Assembly (NCBI GenBank): GCA_019348135.1
Contig: JAHWJY010000001.1
Span: 17,973 to 81,972, forward strand
Direction: 5' to 3'
Length of the DNA stretch: 64,000 nucleotides
Origin: Actinomycetota bacterium
GTDB lineage: Bacteria > Actinomycetota > Nitriliruptoria > Nitriliruptorales > Nitriliruptoraceae
Every line of letters begins with the position of its first letter. Within the stretch, counting starts at the first letter, position 1. The position numbers and the translations under genes were made by a program. Shown here piece by piece: positions 15,574 through 59,065 of this stretch. A model generated the notes under the pieces. The model saw only the letters and a program-made list of their open reading frames with translations. It searched no databases and had not been told where the DNA came from.

Positions 15574-18700
<3,127 letters not shown>

Positions 18701-50761: not shown

Positions 50762-51604
50762 TCAGCCCGTGGGCAGGTGCAGGACGTCGCCCTCCACCGC
50801 CACGCGGACCGGTCGCGTCGCGTCCGCGTACGCCGCGGCGATGGCGTCGAGCTCGGGATCGGTACGGGCCGGATCGTGGTGGAACAGCAGCAGCGAGCCG
50901 ACGTCGCAGACGTCCGCGAGCCCGACGGCGTAGTCGATGGTGCTGTGACCGAAGTCGGCGCGGGCGCCGAACTCCGAGCGCGTGTACTGGGCGTCGTGGA
51001 GCAGGAGGTCGACGCCGTCGACGAGCTCCCGGGCCGCCGGGTGGTACGGGCCGAAGCCGTCGGGGCCGGGGCCGAGCCCGAACGGGTGGTGGTCCGAGAG
51101 GTAGGCGAGGCTGCCGCTGGCGTCGCTCACGCGGTAGCCGAAGGTGCGGCCGCCCTTGTGCGGGATCTCGCGGGCGAGGACCTCGAACCCCTCGATGACC
51201 GTCGTGCCCTCCTCCAGGGCGACGAACCGCCACGCCCCGCGGAGCTGGTCGGGACGGATCGGGAAGTGCGGCGGGGACATCCCGCGCGCGAGCACCTCCA
51301 CCGGGTCACCTCCCTGCGCCGGCAGGTAGAGGTCGACGCGCGCCCGGGGATCGTCGCCGGCGCGGAAGAACGGCAGCCCCTGGGTGTGGTCCCAGTGGAG
51401 GTGGCCGAGCAGGATCGAGCCGTCGAAGGCCGCGCCGTCGAGCAGCGCGGCGACGCGACGCAGGCCGGTCCCGGCATCGAGCAGGAGCGACGGCGGCTCG
51501 CCGTCGTGGGCCAGGGCCACGCACGAGGTGTGGCCCCCGTAGCGGACGGACTCGGGGCCGGGGGTGGGGGTCGAGCCCCGGGACCCGCAGATGTGGACCT
51601 GCAG
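50762..51604 (-). CDS. MBL-fold metallo-hydrolase (candidate cyclic-nucleotide phosphodiesterase); start unresolved
   Basis: HxHxDH motif LLGHLHWDHTQG. The conserved N-terminal strand LQVHICGSRGSTPTPG lies upstream of the first ATG/GTG (51520) in the same frame. The only plausible start there is CTG 51604, after GAGGA. Confidence 0.7.
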   Translation of the reverse strand: MQVHICGSRGSTPTPGPESVRYGGHTSCVALAHDGEPPSLLLDAGTGLRRVAALLDGAAFDGSILLGHLHWDHTQGLPFFRAGDDPRARVDLYLPAQGGDPVEVLARGMSPPHFPIRPDQLRGAWRFVALEEGTTVIEGFEVLAREIPHKGGRTFGYRVSDASGSLAYLSDHHPFGLGPGPDGFGPYHPAARELVDGVDLLLHDAQYTRSEFGARADFGHSTIDYAVGLADVCDVGSLLLFHHDPARTDPELDAIAAAYADATRPVRVAVEGDVLHLPTG

Positions 51605-51668: not shown

Positions 51669-52673
51669 TCAGGTGACGGGAGTCTCGCGCCGGTGGCCCG
51701 TGGCCAGCTGCGCCAGGGCGTCCCGGTCGATCTGACCCGCTGCGGCGACCGCGACCTTACAACCCGTCACGGCGCGCAACGTCGAGGTCCGCGCCCCACC
51801 CTCGAGGATGGCCCGCTCCCCCACGATCGCCCCCGGACCGAGCTGCGCCAGGACCTCACCGTCGACCTCCACCTCGAGCACCCCGTCCAGGAGCAGGTAG
51901 AGGTCGTCACCGTCGGATCCCTGCTCCGTGAGGAGCTCGCCCGCCCCGAGCCGGTCGATCCGGGGCGACGTGCCGGAGCGCATGATCGTCAGGGACAGCT
52001 GCCGTTCGAGCTCCGTCTCGACCTGGGTGATGAGGGCCGGCGTGTCGACGTCCCCCCACGGGGTGTTGTCGCCGAAGTGTTCGCGAGACCACGTCGAGAA
52101 GTCGGTGATGCCGCTCTTCGCGACGAGCCGACCGTCGCCGTCGTAGATCCAGTGACGCGGGAAGGGGCTCGCACCGCGCACCTCGTGCTCGACCCGACCG
52201 TCCGCGTGCAGGGTGAGCGACAGCGTCGTCCAGGCGGTCGGCGGGGAGATCCGCACGAAGGGCGGCTTGCTGACCCGACGGGGCATCGGCGCGCCGGTCC
52301 TGCCGCCCGACGTCTGCTCGAACCGGACCCACCCGTCCCCGACCTCGGGCTCCGGCCGCAGGTCCGGGAACGCGACGGGCTGGAAGGCGAACACCTTGCG
52401 GGACCCGAGGTGCACGTCGGTCGTGGAGATGTAGCTGCGGCCGAGGTGCTCCCACCCCGCGATACGGCCGTCGCCGTCGACCTCGATGGCCGCCGACAGG
52501 AGGTTGGCGAAGCGGAACCGTCCCTCCTCGTTCAGCAGCTGCAGGTCCTCGACGTGGTCCGGCGGCGGGTCGTCGTAGTGGCCGATCCCGATGTCCATGG
52601 GGATCCGCATGTGGCCGCTGATCGCCTCGGACGGGATCCACGAGATGGAGAAGACCTTCGCTTCGATACGCAT
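51669..52673 (-). CDS. protein with unrecognised ~240-aa N-terminal domain and C-terminal cyclic-nucleotide-binding (CNB) domain
   Basis: ATG at 52673 (MRIEAKVFSISWIPSE...). C-terminal CNB features: GELLTEQG..LYLLLDGVLEV... and a phosphate-binding cassette GERAILEGGARTSTLRA. Confidence 0.75.
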   Translation of the reverse strand: MRIEAKVFSISWIPSEAISGHMRIPMDIGIGHYDDPPPDHVEDLQLLNEEGRFRFANLLSAAIEVDGDGRIAGWEHLGRSYISTTDVHLGSRKVFAFQPVAFPDLRPEPEVGDGWVRFEQTSGGRTGAPMPRRVSKPPFVRISPPTAWTTLSLTLHADGRVEHEVRGASPFPRHWIYDGDGRLVAKSGITDFSTWSREHFGDNTPWGDVDTPALITQVETELERQLSLTIMRSGTSPRIDRLGAGELLTEQGSDGDDLYLLLDGVLEVEVDGEVLAQLGPGAIVGERAILEGGARTSTLRAVTGCKVAVAAAGQIDRDALAQLATGHRRETPVT

Positions 52674-52770: not shown

Positions 52771-55011
52771 TCAGGCCGTCGGCGCGGCGGTGGTGACGCG
52801 GTCCGTGGCGGCGACCGGGATGCGGCCCTCGACGCGTGTCCCCCGCCCCGGCGCCGAGTCGATCGACACGTGCCCCCCGAGCGCGTCGAGCCGGTCACGC
52901 ATGTTCTGCAGTCCCGCGCCGTCCCCGATGTCGGACGTGTCGAACCCCGCCCCGTCGTCGACGACCGCGAAGCGCAGGAAGCCGCCCTCGTCGGACAGCT
53001 CGAGCCGCACCAACGACGCCTCGGCGTACTTCGCCACGTTCTGCAGCGCCTCGAGGCAGCAGAAGTAGACGGCCGCCTCGATGTCCTGGCCGTAGCGGTC
53101 GAGCTCGCCGCTCTCGACCACCACGGGGAGGTGGAAGCGCTCCGCGCGGGAGCCGAGCGCGGTGGTGAGCCCGCGCTCCGCCAGGAGCGGCGGGTAGATG
53201 CCGTGCGCGAGCTCGCGCAGCGTCTTGACGGCCTCCTCGGCCTCGTCGGCGAGCTGCCCCAGGAGATCGTCGACGTCACGACCCATCTGGACCATCCGCT
53301 GCGCGAGTCCGAGCTTGACCCGCAGCGACACGAGCTGCTGTTGGGCCCCGTCGTGGAGGTTGCGCTCCAGGCGCCGGCGGACCTCGTCCTGGGCCGTGAT
53401 GACGCGTTGCCGTGATTCCACCAGCTGCGCCACGTGCTCGAGGAGCTCGGCGGTCAGGCGGACGTTCCGCAACAGCAGTCCGGCCTGACCGGCGAGGGTG
53501 TGGAGGAGCCGCTGGTCGACCGGCGCGAGCGAGCCGTCCCCGGGCAGGGTCAGTGCCAGGACCCCGAGCAGCTCGCCGTCGTGGCGCACCGGCACGGCCA
53601 CGGATGCCGGTAGCGCCGGGAGGTCGTCGCCGGTGAGCGGGAGGGGGCGGTGCGGGGCGCCGCCCCCGGGCCACGACGCCGCGGGTCGGAGCTCGTCGCC
53701 GATCCGGAGCCAGATGTCCGACCGACGGGCCGCGGTGCCCTCACCGAGCACCTGGGCCAGCCTCACGAGCTTGTCCTCGGTCTCGGTCTCCTCACCCACC
53801 TGGGTCGAGAAGTCGGCGAGGGTCTCGAGCGGGGTCGCACGGCGGCCGTAGACCATGCGGTCGGCGAGCCGCTTGACGCGCTCCCGTGCCGGCTCGAACG
53901 CGATCGCGACCAGGCCCGTCGCGACGACCGACAGCACGAGGTTGTCGTTCTGGGCGCCGACCAGCCGTCCGATGCCGACCACCACGCCGACGTACACGAG
54001 GGTGACCAGTCCAGCCAGGCTCGTGTAGGTCAGGGCCCGCGTGATGATGCGGTCGATGCCCCACAGCCGGAAGCGCACCACGCCGGCGAACAGCGCCAGC
54101 GGGATGATCGCGAAGACCGGCTGGAAGACGCGGAACAGCTCGACCGGGATGATGGCGATCGAGCGGCCCCCGTAGACCTCGAACGCCGACGCCGTCGAGC
54201 CGCGCGCCACGACGTAGAGACCGAGCACCAACGCCGGTGCGAGCGCCCAGAACATGGTCCGCGCCTGGGCCCGCTCGGCGGTGCCGGTGGCCCGGGCCAG
54301 TCGGTAGGCCTGGGCCGCGACGCCGACGGCCGGCGTGAGCAGCCCGAACACGATCAGGACCGCGAGCGTGCGCGAGGTCCCGCTGATGCGGAAGGCGACC
54401 ACGCCGACGGTCACGCTCACGATCCCGTAGAGGCCGGCCAGCCGGACCGGCGACCAGCGCGGGACGGGACGGCCGTCGGGGAAGACCAGCAGGGCCGCGA
54501 TGTAGGCCCCCGCGGCGACCACGTGGAAGGCCACGTTGCCGGCCTGATCGAGGAACGAGGCCTGCATCTGCTCGTAGACCGCGTACGCCTGGAGGTTGAA
54601 CACGGCCGCCGTGCCGACGAGCGCGACCGCCAGCAGCCGGGCGGTGCGTTCCCGGGGGCGGAGCCACAGGAGGAACCCGGCCAGGGCGAGGTTGACGAGG
54701 CTGAAGGCGTAGTCGAGCACGAGGCCCCACGCCGGCTCGGCCGCGTGGCTGGCATCCGCCACGGCCGCGAACCGCGGTGCGAGCGCGCCGCTCGTGAACG
54801 CGAGCTCATGCAACCGGTCGTGGAGGCCGAGTGGCAGCGCCAGCGCGGCGGCCAGCCCGGCCATGAGCGCCACCACGGCGTAGGCGACGTACACGGCCAG
54901 TCCGACGGCGAAGGCCCAGTCGGCGCTGCGCCACGACCGCAGCGCGGACCCGGCACCGCCGGCCGGAGCGGTCGCTCCGGTCGGCGGGTCCGAGACCTCA
55001 GCGGCGCTCAT
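52771..55011 (-). CDS. multi-TM sensor histidine kinase with GAF domain, HisKA_3 and HATPase_c (NarL-partner type)
   Basis: ATG at 55011. About 8 N-terminal TM helices, a GAF-like region, the H-box LERNLHDGAQQQL and the ATPase motifs LEALQNVAKY, DDGAGF, GLQNMRDRL. Confidence 0.9.
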   Translation of the reverse strand: MSAAEVSDPPTGATAPAGGAGSALRSWRSADWAFAVGLAVYVAYAVVALMAGLAAALALPLGLHDRLHELAFTSGALAPRFAAVADASHAAEPAWGLVLDYAFSLVNLALAGFLLWLRPRERTARLLAVALVGTAAVFNLQAYAVYEQMQASFLDQAGNVAFHVVAAGAYIAALLVFPDGRPVPRWSPVRLAGLYGIVSVTVGVVAFRISGTSRTLAVLIVFGLLTPAVGVAAQAYRLARATGTAERAQARTMFWALAPALVLGLYVVARGSTASAFEVYGGRSIAIIPVELFRVFQPVFAIIPLALFAGVVRFRLWGIDRIITRALTYTSLAGLVTLVYVGVVVGIGRLVGAQNDNLVLSVVATGLVAIAFEPARERVKRLADRMVYGRRATPLETLADFSTQVGEETETEDKLVRLAQVLGEGTAARRSDIWLRIGDELRPAASWPGGGAPHRPLPLTGDDLPALPASVAVPVRHDGELLGVLALTLPGDGSLAPVDQRLLHTLAGQAGLLLRNVRLTAELLEHVAQLVESRQRVITAQDEVRRRLERNLHDGAQQQLVSLRVKLGLAQRMVQMGRDVDDLLGQLADEAEEAVKTLRELAHGIYPPLLAERGLTTALGSRAERFHLPVVVESGELDRYGQDIEAAVYFCCLEALQNVAKYAEASLVRLELSDEGGFLRFAVVDDGAGFDTSDIGDGAGLQNMRDRLDALGGHVSIDSAPGRGTRVEGRIPVAATDRVTTAAPTA

Positions 55012-55025
55012 CGTGGCCGCGATCC

Positions 55026-56330
55026 CTACGCCTCCTCGACGACGACGCTGCCGACCATCGCCGGGTGGACCAGGCAGGCGTACGAGTACCGGCCCGGCTC
55101 GGTGAACGTCACGCTGTACGTACCGTCGAAGAACATCCCCGAGGACAGGAACGACCTTCCGTCCCAGGTCCCGGCGTCCACCGCCACCGGCTCCGGCGGC
55201 GGGCCGCCCGGCGGGCCCCCGCCTTCGCCCTCGCCTTCGCCGCCGGGCGCACCCTCACCCTCGGCCTCTCCCTCGCCCGGGGGCGGACCCTCGGCGGCCG
55301 GATGGCCCGGGCCGCCGCGGGGCTGCAGCGCGTCCGGACTGAAGATGACCGTGCCGTCGTCCTCGATCGAGAGCTGGGTGAAGTAGTCGGGGACGTTGAA
55401 GCTGACGGTGTGCCCGCCCACGAAGGACCACGTGATCGACTCCCCGACCGTGACGGTGTTCTCCTTGGGGATGAACTCGTCGATCACCGCGTGGGTCGTG
55501 GTGGGCTCGTCCGAGCCCCAGCCCGCGTACGGCTTGCGGACCTCCTGGCCGAAGATCGTGGCCGCGTCGGAGGCGCGTGCCTCCTCCAACGCCGCAGCGA
55601 GCGGCGCGGTGACCTCCTCGATCTCGGCGAGCGCCTGCCGGGCGACGTCCGCCTCCGACGGGATCTCCTCGTCCGCCCCGACGACCGTGATCGTCCCCGC
55701 CTGGAACGGCCCGTGGACGTTGCAGTAGTAGGCGTAGGTGCCCGGCTCGATGTCGTTCGCCAGCACGACGTCGAACGTGTTGCCGCGCTCGCCGGCGTAG
55801 GGGATGAACCCGGAGTTGTAGTACGACTGGCGGCCGTCGAAGGCTGGCTGCTCCTGCTGCTCGTCGGTGCAGGGCTCCATGGGGTCCTCCGGCGGCGCAC
55901 CCTCGTCGAGGTAGCACGGCTGGCCGACGTTCTGGTTCACCGGTCCGCCCTCGAGGGTGTCGGGGAGCATGTACGGCAGTGCCGCCGACGCCGCCATGAA
56001 CTCCTCGAACACCTCCGGCGGGATCTCGTCGTCGGGGAGGTGGCCGTACTTCTCGATGAGCGGTGAGATGACCCCCATCATCTCGTCGACCATCGTGCCC
56101 ATGGTCACCGAGTGCGGCTCCCCGGTCCACTCCTGGCGGAAGTTGACGGTGTCGCCGGGGCGCAGCGTCACGTCCCGCGGGAAGTACGCCAGGTACGAGG
56201 CCGCGAACTCGTCGTGCACGTAGTCGACGAGCACCTCACGCGACTGCGCGCCCCCGGCATCGCCGCCGCACGCCGCCCCCACCGCGGCTAGCGCACCCGC
56301 CGCCACCACGATCGCCATCCGTCCACGCAT
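55026..56330 (-). CDS. lipoprotein with two cupredoxin-like (type-1 copper) modules
   Basis: Lipobox AVGAAC. Module 1: GEPHSVTM ... YYCNVHGPFQAG. Module 2: GGHTVSF ... YACLVHPAMVG. A Gly/Glu/Pro-rich insert lies within module 2. Its stop is 14 nt upstream of the kinase start. Confidence 0.75.
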   Translation of the reverse strand: MRGRMAIVVAAGALAAVGAACGGDAGGAQSREVLVDYVHDEFAASYLAYFPRDVTLRPGDTVNFRQEWTGEPHSVTMGTMVDEMMGVISPLIEKYGHLPDDEIPPEVFEEFMAASAALPYMLPDTLEGGPVNQNVGQPCYLDEGAPPEDPMEPCTDEQQEQPAFDGRQSYYNSGFIPYAGERGNTFDVVLANDIEPGTYAYYCNVHGPFQAGTITVVGADEEIPSEADVARQALAEIEEVTAPLAAALEEARASDAATIFGQEVRKPYAGWGSDEPTTTHAVIDEFIPKENTVTVGESITWSFVGGHTVSFNVPDYFTQLSIEDDGTVIFSPDALQPRGGPGHPAAEGPPPGEGEAEGEGAPGGEGEGEGGGPPGGPPPEPVAVDAGTWDGRSFLSSGMFFDGTYSVTFTEPGRYSYACLVHPAMVGSVVVEEA

Positions 56331-56565
56331 CCTGCGGCTCCCGTCCCCTGCCCCGTGGCCACGGCGTGCGCCGCCGACCGTGGGCATCTTCGCCGAGGCG
56401 CCGAGGACGGCGGAAGGGTACGTCCCTGCGTATGCGACGTGTGGCTAGCACCACCATGGATGCGGAGGCGGCCACCCCTTGCCCCCATGCGCGCCAGCGG
56501 CGACCATCCGGGTCCGCTCGACCTCCTCCTCGCCGGAGAGCGCTCCGGCCGCCTCCGGGAGACCG

Positions 56566-57879
56566 ATGACCGCAGCCGCGCACATCAGCGTCTTCCTCGC
56601 CGACGACAACCTGATCGTCCGCGAGGGGGTCCGGGCGCTCCTGGACCTCGAGGACGACATCGAGGTCGTCGGTACCGCCGGCGACTACGACGGGCTGGTC
56701 GCCGGGGCGGAGGAGGCGAACCCGAACGTCGTCGTGACCGACATCCGTATGCCGCCGGACTTCCGCCGCGAGGGCATCGAGGCCGCCAAGGAGGTCCGCA
56801 AGCGGCATCCGGGGACGGGCATCGTGATCCTCAGCCAGTACGACGACCCGGAGTACGCGGTCTCGCTCCTGTCCGAGGGCGCCGCCGGCTACGCCTACCT
56901 CCTGAAGGACCGCGTCGGCGAGGGTGACCAGCTCGCGCGTGCGGTCCGCGAGGTGGCGTCGGGGGGCTCGATGCTCGATCCGACCATCGTCGAGTCGTTG
57001 ACCCGCCCCGTCGCCCCCGTCTCGGGCCTGTCCCGCGAGGAGGAGCAGCTGCTGACCGCGATCGCGGAGGGCCGGCCGATCAAGGCGATCGCTGCCCAGC
57101 GTCGGACCACGGCCGCCGCGGTCGACGCCGAGATCGAGAAGCTGTGGGTCAAGCTCGCCGCCGGGTTGTCCGCCGGCGACAGCAGCAGTCTGGAACGGTT
57201 GAAGATGCTCCACCGGGCCATCATCGACCGGGAGGAGCAGGGTGAGAGCCTGTCACGACTGCTCCCGGCGGGGCTCGCCGAGAAGCTCCACGCCGAGGGC
57301 CGGCGACCCGGGGAGTCCGAGGAGCTCGTCGTCACCGTGCTGATGAGCGATATCCGCAGCTACTCCACGATCGCCGAACGGACCGACCCGTCGCTGCTGG
57401 CCAGGCAGCTGCACGAGCACCGCGGTGCCATGAACCGGGCCGTGCACGCGGCCGGCGGTACGGTCATGCAGTTCGTCGGTGACGCGGTGATGGCCGTCTT
57501 CGGGGCGCCGTCCCCGAGCCCCGACCACGCCGACCGGTCCGTGACCGCGGCGGCCGCCATGCACGCCGCCCAGGACGCCGTCAACGAGCGCTGGGCCGGC
57601 CAGGGGCTCGAGCCGTTCGGCCTCGGGATCGGGCTGTCGACGGGCAGGGTCGCAGCGGCCATCCTCGGCTCGGAGGAACGCCTCGAGTACTCGCTCGTCG
57701 GCGACACGGTGAACCTCACCCAGCGGCTCCAGCAGTGGGCCGAGCCCGGCGAGACGGTGCTCATCGAGGCCACCCGGGCGGCGTTGGAGCGACCGCTCAC
57801 CTGCGAGAAGCTCGAGCCGTCGCTGGTGAAGGGGCGTGCACACCCGGTGGTGGCCTACCGGTTCCCGCCCCGCGGCTGA
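56566..57879 (+). CDS. response-regulator receiver - LuxR-type HTH - class III nucleotidyl cyclase fusion
   Basis: REC: FLADDN, VVVTDIRMPP, ILSQY, AYLLKD. HTH: LSREEEQLLTAIAEGRPIKAIAA. Cyclase: VLMSDIRSYS, FVGDAVMAVFG, GDTVNLTQR. Confidence 0.85.
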   Translation: MTAAAHISVFLADDNLIVREGVRALLDLEDDIEVVGTAGDYDGLVAGAEEANPNVVVTDIRMPPDFRREGIEAAKEVRKRHPGTGIVILSQYDDPEYAVSLLSEGAAGYAYLLKDRVGEGDQLARAVREVASGGSMLDPTIVESLTRPVAPVSGLSREEEQLLTAIAEGRPIKAIAAQRRTTAAAVDAEIEKLWVKLAAGLSAGDSSSLERLKMLHRAIIDREEQGESLSRLLPAGLAEKLHAEGRRPGESEELVVTVLMSDIRSYSTIAERTDPSLLARQLHEHRGAMNRAVHAAGGTVMQFVGDAVMAVFGAPSPSPDHADRSVTAAAAMHAAQDAVNERWAGQGLEPFGLGIGLSTGRVAAAILGSEERLEYSLVGDTVNLTQRLQQWAEPGETVLIEATRAALERPLTCEKLEPSLVKGRAHPVVAYRFPPRG

Positions 57880-57897
57880 CCACGAGCCGGCGGTGGC

Positions 57898-58269
57898 TCA
57901 GGCGACCGCCGCACCGTTCCATGCCTCCTCGAGCGCGTCGGGCGTGAAGGCCGACTTCGACACGAACGCGATCGCCCCCGCCTCGGTCGCCCGGGGGCCG
58001 TACTCGGTCGCCTCGTAGGTCGACAGCACGACCACGCGGATCGAGCTCGCCCCGGCGAGGATCCGCCGGGTCGCCTCGAGCCCGTCGATGCCCGGGAGGT
58101 TCACGTCCATCAGCACGAGATCGGGATGCAGGTCGAGCGCCTTCGCGACGGCCTCCTCCCCGGTCTCCGCCTCGTCGAGGACCTCGAAGTCGTCGGTCAT
58201 CTCGACCACCATCCGTGCCGCAGAGCGGAACGGCGCCTGGTCGTCGACGATCAGGACTCGCACAGCCAC
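57898..58269 (-). CDS. stand-alone response-regulator receiver (CheY-like)
   Basis: AAGGAG RBS then GTG at 58269. Motifs LIVDDQ, LVLMDVNLPG, VVVLSTY, AFVSKS. No output domain. Confidence 0.88.
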   Translation of the reverse strand: MAVRVLIVDDQAPFRSAARMVVEMTDDFEVLDEAETGEEAVAKALDLHPDLVLMDVNLPGIDGLEATRRILAGASSIRVVVLSTYEATEYGPRATEAGAIAFVSKSAFTPDALEEAWNGAAVA

Positions 58270-58396: not shown

Positions 58397-59065
58397 TCAG
58401 TCGGACTGGGCTCCGAGGAAGACCAGCACCGCCTGGACGCGCCGGTGGGTGTCGCCCTCGTTGGACAGGTCGAGCTTGTCGAAGATCGAGTTGATGTGCT
58501 TCTCGACGGCACGCTCGGTGACGAACAGGGCGCCCGCGATGGCCGAGTTGTTCTTTCCCTTCGCGATCTCCGCGAGCACCTCGGTCTCGCGCGGGGTCAG
58601 CCGGTCGAGCGACGACGACGGCTGGCTCGTGCGCGCCACGACGAGCGAGTCGACGACCTTCGGATCGATGACCGATCCCCCGGCGGCGACGGCCCGGATG
58701 GCCTCGTGCAGCTGGTCGATGTCCCCGACGCGCTCCTTCAGCAGGTAGGCGCGTCCCTGTGAGCCGCTGTCGAACAGGCTCAGGGCGTAGCTCGCGTCGG
58801 CGTACTGGCTGAGCACCACCACGCCCGTGTCGGGGTGGCTCTCACGCAGGCGCTCGGCCGCCCGGATCCCCTCGTCGGTGCCGGTCGGCGGCATCCGGAT
58901 GTCGGTCAGCACGACGTCGGGGTTGTGCTCGTCGACGGCCGCGTACAGGCCGTCGAGATCCTCGACGACGGCGACGAGCTCGACGTCGTCGAGCTCGGCG
59001 AGGAGCAGCTTCACGCCCTCACGGACGAGGTAGCTGTCCTCGGCCAGGACCACGCGGATCGACAT
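58397..59065 (-). CDS. NarL/FixJ-family response regulator (REC + LuxR HTH)
   Basis: ATG at 59065. Motifs VVLTDIRMPP, VVVLSQY, AYLLKE. HTH: LTPRETEVLAEIAKGKNNSAIAGALFVTERAVEKHINSIFDKL. Confidence 0.93.
   Translation of the reverse strand: MSIRVVLAEDSYLVREGVKLLLAELDDVELVAVVEDLDGLYAAVDEHNPDVVLTDIRMPPTGTDEGIRAAERLRESHPDTGVVVLSQYADASYALSLFDSGSQGRAYLLKERVGDIDQLHEAIRAVAAGGSVIDPKVVDSLVVARTSQPSSSLDRLTPRETEVLAEIAKGKNNSAIAGALFVTERAVEKHINSIFDKLDLSNEGDTHRRVQAVLVFLGAQSD

Follow-up and report, generated by a model that had tools for sequence, protein, structure and literature searches.

A predicted NarL-type response regulator of uncultured Actinomycetota with a class IIIb nucleotidyl cyclase domain and an invariant glutamine at the purine-reading position

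Introduction

The canonical specificity pairs of class III nucleotidyl cyclases are Lys with Asp or Thr for ATP, and Glu with Cys, Ser or Gly for GTP. What, then, is to be expected of a cyclase that carries neither Lys nor Glu at the first of these positions? The question is raised by a gene at positions 56566-57879 on the forward strand of a 64,000-nucleotide (nt) stretch of DNA (the window; positions 17,973 to 81,972 of contig JAHWJY010000001.1, GenBank assembly GCA_019348135.1) from an Actinomycetota bacterium of the Nitriliruptoraceae. A preliminary description had taken its product for a fusion of a receiver, a LuxR-type helix-turn-helix (HTH) domain and a class III cyclase, and had regarded both specificity residues, a Gln and a Ser, as anomalous. 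Our analysis indicates that the protein is best described as a NarL-type response regulator with a class IIIb nucleotidyl cyclase as its output, and that the Gln alone appears to be non-canonical. On balance we favor 3',5'-cyclic AMP (cAMP) as its main product, and a cyclic nucleotide-binding (CNB) protein encoded nearby as the probable receptor.

Results

Architecture of the protein

The window has a G+C content of 72% and lies on a contig (C123 in our numbering) of a 3.17-Mb source genome that is in 342 contigs and is 72% complete. The reading frame at 56566-57879 is open and has the sequence GGGAGA 5 nt before its ATG. The gene and the parts of its product, numbered in amino acids (aa), are as follows.

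56566..57879, plus strand: gene for a receiver / GerE-derived domain / class III cyclase protein, 437 aa plus stop (open reading frame, translation, Pfam, 119 homologs)
56584..56958, plus strand: receiver domain, residues 7-131 (PF00072; NarL-type NCBIfam models; AlphaFold2 (AF2) fold)
57022..57243, plus strand: diverged GerE/LuxR-type four-helix domain, residues 153-226 (hhalign, AF2, sub-threshold Pfam GerE match)
57244..57315, plus strand: cyclase-transducer-like element, residues 227-250, ESLSRLLPAGLAEKL (LLPxGxAxxL pattern; short helix in the AF2 model)
57316..57864, plus strand: class III (IIIb-like) cyclase catalytic domain, residues 251-433 (PF00211, phmmer, Foldseek)

Pfam recognizes two domains in the 437-aa protein, Response_reg at residues 9-109 (E 1.4e-16) and Guanylate_cyc at residues 256-425 (E 2.6e-21). 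NCBIfam models of NarL-type regulators (MctR, MadR, NarL) align with residues 7-200, all of them far under their equivalog cut-offs, and residues 7-197 are 49% identical to a canonical NarL-type regulator whose gene (58397-59062) lies 500 nt away, downstream and on the opposite strand. Together, the model matches and the identity to this neighbor lead us to read the protein as a NarL-type regulator with a class III cyclase at its C terminus. The order of receiver, HTH-like domain and cyclase given in the preliminary description is thus borne out by Pfam, by hhalign and by the AF2 monomer (mean predicted local distance difference test score, pLDDT, 79.8), with the qualification that the middle domain is a diverged GerE domain.

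The receiver has a (beta-alpha)5 fold in the model and carries the complete signature of NarL/FixJ receivers: the acidic pair D13/D14, the phospho-acceptor D59 (verified as the GAC codon at 56740-56742), S90 and K114. All five residues are invariant in 119 of 119 homologs, these being the best 119 of thousands of relatives (71-94% identical, 430-480 aa), which served as the conservation set. The motifs VVVTDIRMPP, ILSQY and LLKD, on which the receiver had earlier been judged intact, are all found.

The middle domain calls for a more divided verdict. It forms four helices in the AF2 model (residues 157-167, 172-178, 183-202 and 206-226), and the family profile over residues 148-228 aligns with the HTH of the neighboring NarL regulators at a probability of 95% (E 4e-8). 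Pfam GerE (PF00196), applied to residues 144-235, gives 14 bits (E 0.039) against a cut-off of 23.5. Where the regulators have S-e-R-A-V-E-K-H in the recognition helix, the cyclase family has T-p-a-d-v-d-a-x in the same columns, so that the conserved recognition-helix residues of a functional GerE/LuxR output domain are lost. The exposed positions of this helix vary (185 Asp/Ala, 187 Asp/Ala/Asn, 188 Ala/Thr/Asp, 189 Arg/Ala/Gln, 192 Arg/Lys/Ala) in a protein whose remainder is about 70% identical across classes. Because the GerE score is sub-threshold and the exposed positions are variable, we infer that DNA binding has been lost and that the domain is probably a GerE-derived fold kept for dimerization, as a linker, and not for reading DNA. 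The earlier label "LuxR(HTH)" therefore stands as a statement of ancestry, given the hhalign match, the identity to the neighboring regulator and the four helices, but not as a statement of DNA-reading function.

Between the middle and catalytic domains, the pattern LLPxGxAxxL directly precedes the latter and is kept in the family, and the model places a short helix at residues 237-243. The segment resembles what we take to be the cyclase-transducer element described for class IIIa/b enzymes, and we would assign residues 227-250 to that element.

Catalytic and specificity residues

Both profile and fold place the C-terminal domain in class III. PF00211 scores 76.5 bits against a cut-off of 21.9, and a Foldseek search with the AF2 model gives template modeling (TM) scores of 0.83-0.89 to Cya2, CyaC and CyaB, all of class IIIb. 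The same three enzymes are the best cyclase matches of a phmmer search against PDB sequences (Cya2, 2w01, gapless over residues 255-405; CyaB, 3r5g; CyaC, 1wc0). The metal-binding D262 and D306 and the transition-state residues N383 and R387 align with the catalytic residues of CyaC, CyaB and Cya2 and are invariant in the 119 homologs; K422, in a C-terminal KG[RK] motif, is invariant or nearly so. These assignments confirm the catalytic residues that had been picked out from the motifs LMSDIRSYS, FVGDAVM and GDTVNLTQR. The equivalent residues of CyaC are reportedly K1057, T1139, N1146 and R1150, as Steegborn and colleagues are said to have described in 2005.

The two specificity columns can be read from the same alignments. 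In the Lys/Glu column, four residues before the second metal Asp, CyaC and CyaB have Lys (DKFVGD), Cya2 has Glu (DEFMGD) and the present protein has Gln302 (MQFVGD; codon CAG, 57469-57471). In the Asp/Thr/Gly column, seven residues before the catalytic Asn, CyaC and CyaB have Thr (the CyaC match reads fTaigpsvNiaaR), Cya2 has Gly and the present protein has Ser376 (codon TCG, 57691-57693). The spacings are as expected (Q(-4)D, S(+7)N, N(+4)R). Hidden Markov model alignments to CyaC, CyaB and Cya2 thus agree with the placement of Gln (MQFVGDAVM) and Ser (EYSLVGDTVN) previously made by eye, and the alignment to solved class III cyclases yields no canonical Lys/Asp pair. Gln302 is present in all 119 homologs, and position 376 is Ser in 100 and Thr in 19.

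It does not follow that the pair is doubly anomalous, as the preliminary description had it. Replacement of the specificity Asp by Thr or Ser is the mark of class IIIb, a subclass reportedly defined by Linder and Schultz in 2003, and it is to CyaC, CyaB and Cya2 that the protein is structurally nearest. Among the 80 species with the closest homologs, the clade itself has Thr at this position in 49 (MQ/T pockets) and Ser in 29 (MQ/S). Since Thr is normal in class IIIb and the clade mixes Thr and Ser, the pair is most simply read as a Lys-to-Gln change on a canonical Lys/Thr background: Ser376 fits class IIIb, as an apparently conservative variant of its Thr, and Gln302, which fits neither the ATP nor the GTP class, would alone be non-canonical.

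Distribution and the two clades

The architecture had been called unusual, a view that does not survive a wider survey. At least 541 GTDB species genomes encode a relative of the cyclase protein (one genome per species was scanned), and full-length homologs occur in 49 of 401 evenly sampled genomes of the phylum, in two tiers of identity (59-76% and 42-48%). The best 80 of the at least 541 species have full-length homologs that are 66-76% identical; most are metagenome-assembled genomes (MAGs) of Acidimicrobiia/Acidimicrobiales, Nitriliruptorales and Egibacteraceae, and some are labeled Streptosporangiaceae or Dormibacterota. No cultured host was found, and among 160 loci one record, an isolate (L056), is not labeled a MAG. 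No paper on this cyclase family came up when the literature was searched for receiver/LuxR-type cyclases and for substrate selection by Rv0386. Homologs with 69-72% identity were also seen in MAGs labeled Gammaproteobacteria, Kiloniellales, Acidobacteriota or Dormibacterota (L007, L048, L051, L027, L042, L044), which could be due to binning error or to horizontal transfer. One family variant (P0121, 561 aa) has an extra receiver C-terminal to the cyclase, giving the order receiver / GerE-like / cyclase / receiver.

Proteins of the lower tier (42-48% identical) have the same architecture with a canonical class IIIb pocket, G[TM][IVL]DKF.GD and EYTV.GD. Over 80 species of this Lys-type sister clade the pockets are DK/T in 64, SK/T in 3 and DQ/T in 5, and those with DQ have the rest of the pocket unchanged. 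When the catalytic domains are placed in a maximum-likelihood tree, a single clade (support 100/98) takes in the Gln-type proteins, and a DQ member (L096) falls inside the Lys clade. The two clades are set apart by fixed differences at several positions, among them eleven (F260M, F266Y, L286R, A290N, D301M, K302Q, N358S, I363A, G365A, G369S and A381T), the first of which lies two residues before the first metal Asp. A third group, cyclases of about 760 aa with the motif GTVVQFVGD, lies outside both clades. Counting the Gln clade, the DQ members within the Lys clade and the 760-aa group, Gln at the Lys column has arisen independently at least three times.

The Gln clade also holds proteins of about 570-630 aa that have hydrophobic N termini and the same MQ[FY].GD motif. 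These MQ[FY]xGD / EY[ST] proteins have no Pfam domain in their N-terminal part and nest within or beside the receiver-type Gln clade (P0155, P0156, P0163, P0171, P0177, P0178, P0193, P0196, P0199, P0201, P0203, P0204, P0214, P0226 and P0227), a distribution that indicates shuffling of the Gln-type cyclase domain. Elsewhere, Gln stands four residues before the second metal Asp in the GTVVQFVGD cyclases L110, L114 and L127 (about 760 aa) and in L119, L120 and L126 (about 950 aa, GFIAQIKGD, with weak domain matches), and each of these six adjoins a homolog of the CNB protein described below. The source genome itself encodes four other class III cyclase domains, on contigs C116, C64, C207 and C32 (L086-L089); in each, the C-terminal half failed to align with the profile of the family.

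Gene neighborhood and partner genes

The cyclase gene stands within a conserved set of signaling genes, represented in the window by the following features, which include a metallo-beta-lactamase (MBL)-fold hydrolase and a protein that binds cyclic nucleotide monophosphates (cNMPs).

50762..51604, minus strand: MBL-fold hydrolase with an HLHWDH motif (Pfam Lactamase_B_2)
51669..52673, minus strand: cNMP-binding protein with a beta-rich N-terminal domain of about 230 aa and a C-terminal CNB domain (Pfam cNMP_binding)
52771..55011, minus strand: histidine kinase, multiple transmembrane segments, GAF / HisKA_3 / HATPase_c, 746 aa (Pfam)
55026..56387, minus strand: cupredoxin (plastocyanin/azurin-like), upstream of the kinase (Pfam Copper-bind)
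57898..58269, minus strand: stand-alone receiver, 123 aa, convergent with the cyclase gene (Pfam Response_reg, E 3e-23)
58397..59062, minus strand: NarL-type response regulator, receiver plus GerE, paralog of the N-terminal half of the cyclase protein (Pfam)

Neighbors were counted over 80 species loci, with those loci that had enough flanking sequence as the denominator. Typically, the MBL hydrolase and CNB genes are divergent from the cyclase gene, which is followed by one or two HisKA_3 kinase genes, often with 4-nt overlaps; a convergent lone receiver and a NarL regulator come after the kinase or kinases. The CNB protein is encoded in 55 of 62 related loci (directly divergent in 44) and the MBL hydrolase, adjoining the CNB gene, in 34 of 62; 43 of 59 have a HisKA_3 kinase gene no more than 1.5 kb downstream of the cyclase, and the NarL regulator and lone receiver are found in 42 of 48. 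The window has the same genes, but its cupredoxin-kinase pair is inverted and placed between the CNB gene and the cyclase. By comparison, the 14 Lys-type sister loci that were read encode kinases along with a NarL regulator in divergent orientation; they lack the MBL gene, and 2 of them have a CNB gene.

The kinase encoded at 52771-55011 is the probable cognate kinase of the cyclase, and its ortholog in locus L013 matches it at 853 bits. L013, from an Egibacteraceae MAG, is also the only one of the 80 related loci with a cupredoxin gene, which thus appears to be a lineage-specific addition. Most genomes (L001, L083, L084 and many of L003-L082) instead have two tandem kinases of about 710 aa downstream of the cyclase, with 4-nt overlaps; of the two, one has a HisKA_3 match in Pfam and its partner a HATPase_c match. 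In place of the pair, the window and L013 have a single complete kinase, preceded by the cupredoxin.

The CNB protein (51669-52673) is the probable receptor of the cyclase product. Its AF2 model is of good quality (pLDDT 84, predicted TM score 0.82). The N-terminal domain has no match in Pfam, NCBIfam or PHROGs, and all 50 listed matches of a Foldseek search of the model against the PDB are CNB-domain proteins, none of them matching that domain. Further CNB genes were examined at 18 loci in genomes without a strong match to the receiver-type cyclase; at 14 of these, the CNB homolog (48-61% identical) has a class III cyclase of one type or another beside it. The family (50-60% identical) has the cassette GPGA..GE[RM]A..RT[AS]T throughout, and in other families of the phylum it stands beside further cyclases, among them canonical Lys/Thr enzymes in L111 and L123 and Lys-bearing ones in L112, L115, L117 and L121.

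The MBL-fold protein is a candidate cNMP phosphodiesterase on the strength of an NCBIfam match. All 29 homologs examined match NCBIfam NF041851, "cyclic nucleotide-degrading phosphodiesterase", over their full length but weakly (best E 1.2e-11, far below the cut-off), and their C-terminal parts match RNase Z models; among PDB sequences, a profile search matched RNase Z/ELAC and no solved cNMP phosphodiesterase. Its translation from 51604 begins with Leu (CTG), and the first ATG or GTG is at 51520. On the other side of the locus, the cyclase and lone-receiver genes end 18 nt apart (57879-57898), with no terminator-like hairpin detected. In the 178-nt divergent intergenic region and at the cyclase 3' end, no promoter, terminator or repeat scored above shuffled background; two 9-nt imperfect inverted repeats were noted.

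Discussion

The domain composition of the protein, together with its conserved neighbors, leads us to favor a model in which it is a phosphorylation-activated cyclase that makes cAMP to be read by the adjacent CNB protein, a reading we regard as reasonably probable. The neighboring HisKA_3 kinase would phosphorylate Asp59, and phosphorylation would free and dimerize the receiver and the four-helix GerE-derived domain, by analogy with NarL, DesR and VraR. The long fourth helix and the transducer element could then align two catalytic domains into an active head-to-tail homodimer whose product, most probably cAMP, would be a 3',5'-cyclic purine nucleotide, with Gln302 replacing the Lys that hydrogen-bonds adenine N1 and Ser376 acting as the equivalent of the class IIIb Thr. 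The nucleotide would be read by the CNB protein and probably removed by the MBL-fold hydrolase. The same kinase may also feed the paralogous DNA-binding NarL regulator, as a parallel transcriptional output, and the lone receiver, which is perhaps a phosphate sink. There is precedent for the central step in cyanobacterial CyaC, a class III cyclase activated by receiver phosphotransfer (Kasahara and Ohmori 1999, cited in PMC1183210).

On the identity of the product the evidence is divided. The preliminary description was right that it cannot be read from sequence alone, but its case for a novel specificity is weakened, since gene context and the recurrence of Gln make cAMP the likeliest outcome. 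The sister clade of the same architecture carries the canonical DK...T pocket in most of its species, the 760-aa cyclase lineage gained Gln independently, and the same CNB family, its phosphate-binding cassette almost unchanged, stands beside Lys/Thr cyclases. The interchange of Lys and Gln inside the Lys clade, with the pocket otherwise untouched, further suggests that the two residues are near-equivalent. Rv0386 of Mycobacterium tuberculosis, which reportedly has Gln at the Lys position and Asn as the partner residue (as Castro and colleagues are said to have found in 2005), may be instructive here. An adenylate cyclase, it also has a guanylate cyclase side activity of about 20% (PMC4452763). 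We therefore consider cAMP the probable main product and a different or dual product rather unlikely. Some relaxation of purine selectivity is nonetheless plausible, because the Gln amide can both donate to adenine N1 and pair with guanine.

Several observations weigh against this preference for cAMP or against the model as a whole. The AF2 prediction is of a single chain, and the linkers at residues 147-152 and 224-234 have pLDDT values below 50. The stem between the Lys and Gln clades is long (1.0-1.4 substitutions per site), and the fixed changes of the Gln clade include F260M, D301M, N358S, G365A, G369S and A381T, all at active-site-proximal positions that are otherwise conserved. Elsewhere in the genome, all four class III cyclase domains retain Lys (EVKATGD, VVKYLGD, LAKFIGD, VVKSLGD). 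Of 20 Gln-type genomes 18 encode a member of the CNB-protein family, against 2 of 28 Lys-type genomes, a pattern drawn from relatives that are not independent of one another, and the Arg-Thr of the family's cassette is also a feature of cGMP-selective domains. One could therefore argue that the MQ[FY]xGD / EY[ST] clade, which occurs in receiver/GerE-like proteins and in membrane architectures of about 600 aa, has switched to cyclic GMP (cGMP), to both purine cNMPs or to a pyrimidine cNMP, within a kinase-gated circuit of CNB receptor and MBL hydrolase insulated from the cAMP pool; such a circuit may span Acidimicrobiia, Nitriliruptoria and relatives, with the receptor and the MBL phosphodiesterase co-inherited. 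On that view the pocket was remodeled and then frozen along the stem, K302Q and the six changes just listed being 85-100% fixed in both clades; the Gln is isosteric with the guanylate cyclase Glu that Cya2 has in the same column, the link to the CNB protein is both phyletic and positional, and the MBL neighbor resembles a model of phosphodiesterases that degrade cNMPs broadly. However, CNB proteins of the same family with the GE[RM]A...RT[AS]T cassette are partnered by canonical Lys/Thr cyclases too, and Lys has sporadically given way to Gln within the Lys clade with none of the other pocket changes. As to the pyrimidine variant, the published Pycsar residues F100/R142/Q144 and Y50/D94/R97 are unmatched (PMC11224242), PADLOC matches PycC at the generic domain level only and there is no defense-island context. 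Pycsar itself was rejected as an identification, since the PADLOC models score at most 74 bits, no higher than the generic Pfam domain, and the specificity residues and operon type differ, the neighbors here being kinases and regulators. All told, a change of substrate seems to us improbable, if the most serious of the alternatives; for the clade as a whole, a switched circuit separate from cAMP is similarly doubtful.

Two other possibilities concern what the protein does rather than what it makes. It might be bifunctional, its GerE-like domain still binding DNA so that phosphorylation switches on transcription control along with the cyclase. All four GerE helices have been retained, their hydrophobic core is conserved, and the domain has long been kept in both the Lys and the Gln clades. 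Yet its Pfam GerE score is below threshold, the counterparts of the conserved V-E-K-H of the regulator's recognition helix are a variable mixture of Ala, Asp and Arg (positions 185-189), and the module encodes a separate, intact NarL regulator, and we accordingly think a bifunctional protein distinctly less probable than a change of substrate. We give still less credence to the idea that the cyclase domain is catalytically dead, a pseudo-enzyme with a regulatory or dimerization role. The non-canonical Gln and the several changes at normally conserved positions might be read in that way, but little or no variation is seen across the 119 homologs in the metal Asps, the transition-state Asn/Arg pair or the C-terminal KG[RK], and the gene adjoins those for a cNMP receptor and a probable phosphodiesterase, which makes a dead enzyme highly improbable. 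A kinase-controlled cyclase that makes cAMP thus remains our preferred reading.

If it is correct, Gln can do the work of the textbook Lys, and the rules by which cyclase products are predicted will need to be widened; if the product is not cAMP, the genes described here would constitute a new housekeeping second-messenger pathway. In either case, the family offers what looks like a clear example of an output domain that once bound DNA and has been turned into a mechanical connection to an enzyme. It comprises a large and strongly conserved clade of cyclases (about 60-76% identity across classes) in which a key purine-reading position is always Gln. With the cyclase, a kinase, a receptor and a probable phosphodiesterase make up a complete, co-inherited circuit, found in abundant uncultured Actinomycetota of soil and sediment. 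For the role of the Gln302 column, natural controls exist in the Lys-type sister clade and in those of its members that have sporadically exchanged Lys for Gln.

Receiver-controlled class III cyclases are already known, and the Gln-type family appears to add to them. Among its best matches in both sequence and fold are CyaC of Spirulina platensis and CyaB of Pseudomonas aeruginosa, with which it shares the two metal Asps, the Asn/Arg pair, a hydroxyl residue (Thr or Ser) at the second specificity position and, as we would expect, a head-to-tail homodimer. CyaC, too, is controlled by receiver phosphorylation (Kasahara and Ohmori 1999, cited in PMC1183210), as is proposed for the present protein. 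Unlike these two enzymes, the present protein has an invariant Gln for the Lys, a Met for the preceding Asp and further clade-fixed changes in the pocket, and its N-terminal regulator is a NarL-type receiver with the remnant of a GerE domain. The guanylate cyclase Cya2 of Synechocystis is the top PDB match (TM 0.83-0.87) and has Glu in the Gln302 column; its pair is Glu/Gly where that of the present protein is Gln/Ser, whose neutral amide can pair with adenine or guanine. Rv0386 resembles the present protein in being an actinomycetotal class III cyclase fused to a LuxR-type HTH, but its order is reversed (cyclase first, ATPase next and HTH last), it lacks a receiver, and it belongs to another cyclase subclass and clade. 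The Lys/Thr sister clade (for example P0127 and P0135, from uncultured Actinomycetota and Thermoleophilia) has the three-part architecture, the length and the HisKA_3 and NarL neighbors, and differs in its canonical DK...T pocket, in the lack of an MBL gene at the 14 loci read and in the rarity of the CNB gene in its genomes. PycC of the Pycsar system, finally, shares the class III fold and a paired effector with a CNB domain; in contrast, the cyclase described here is predicted to be under kinase control, its CNB partner has neither a TIR nor a transmembrane effector domain, and its genes show the conservation of a core signaling system rather than the setting of a defense island.

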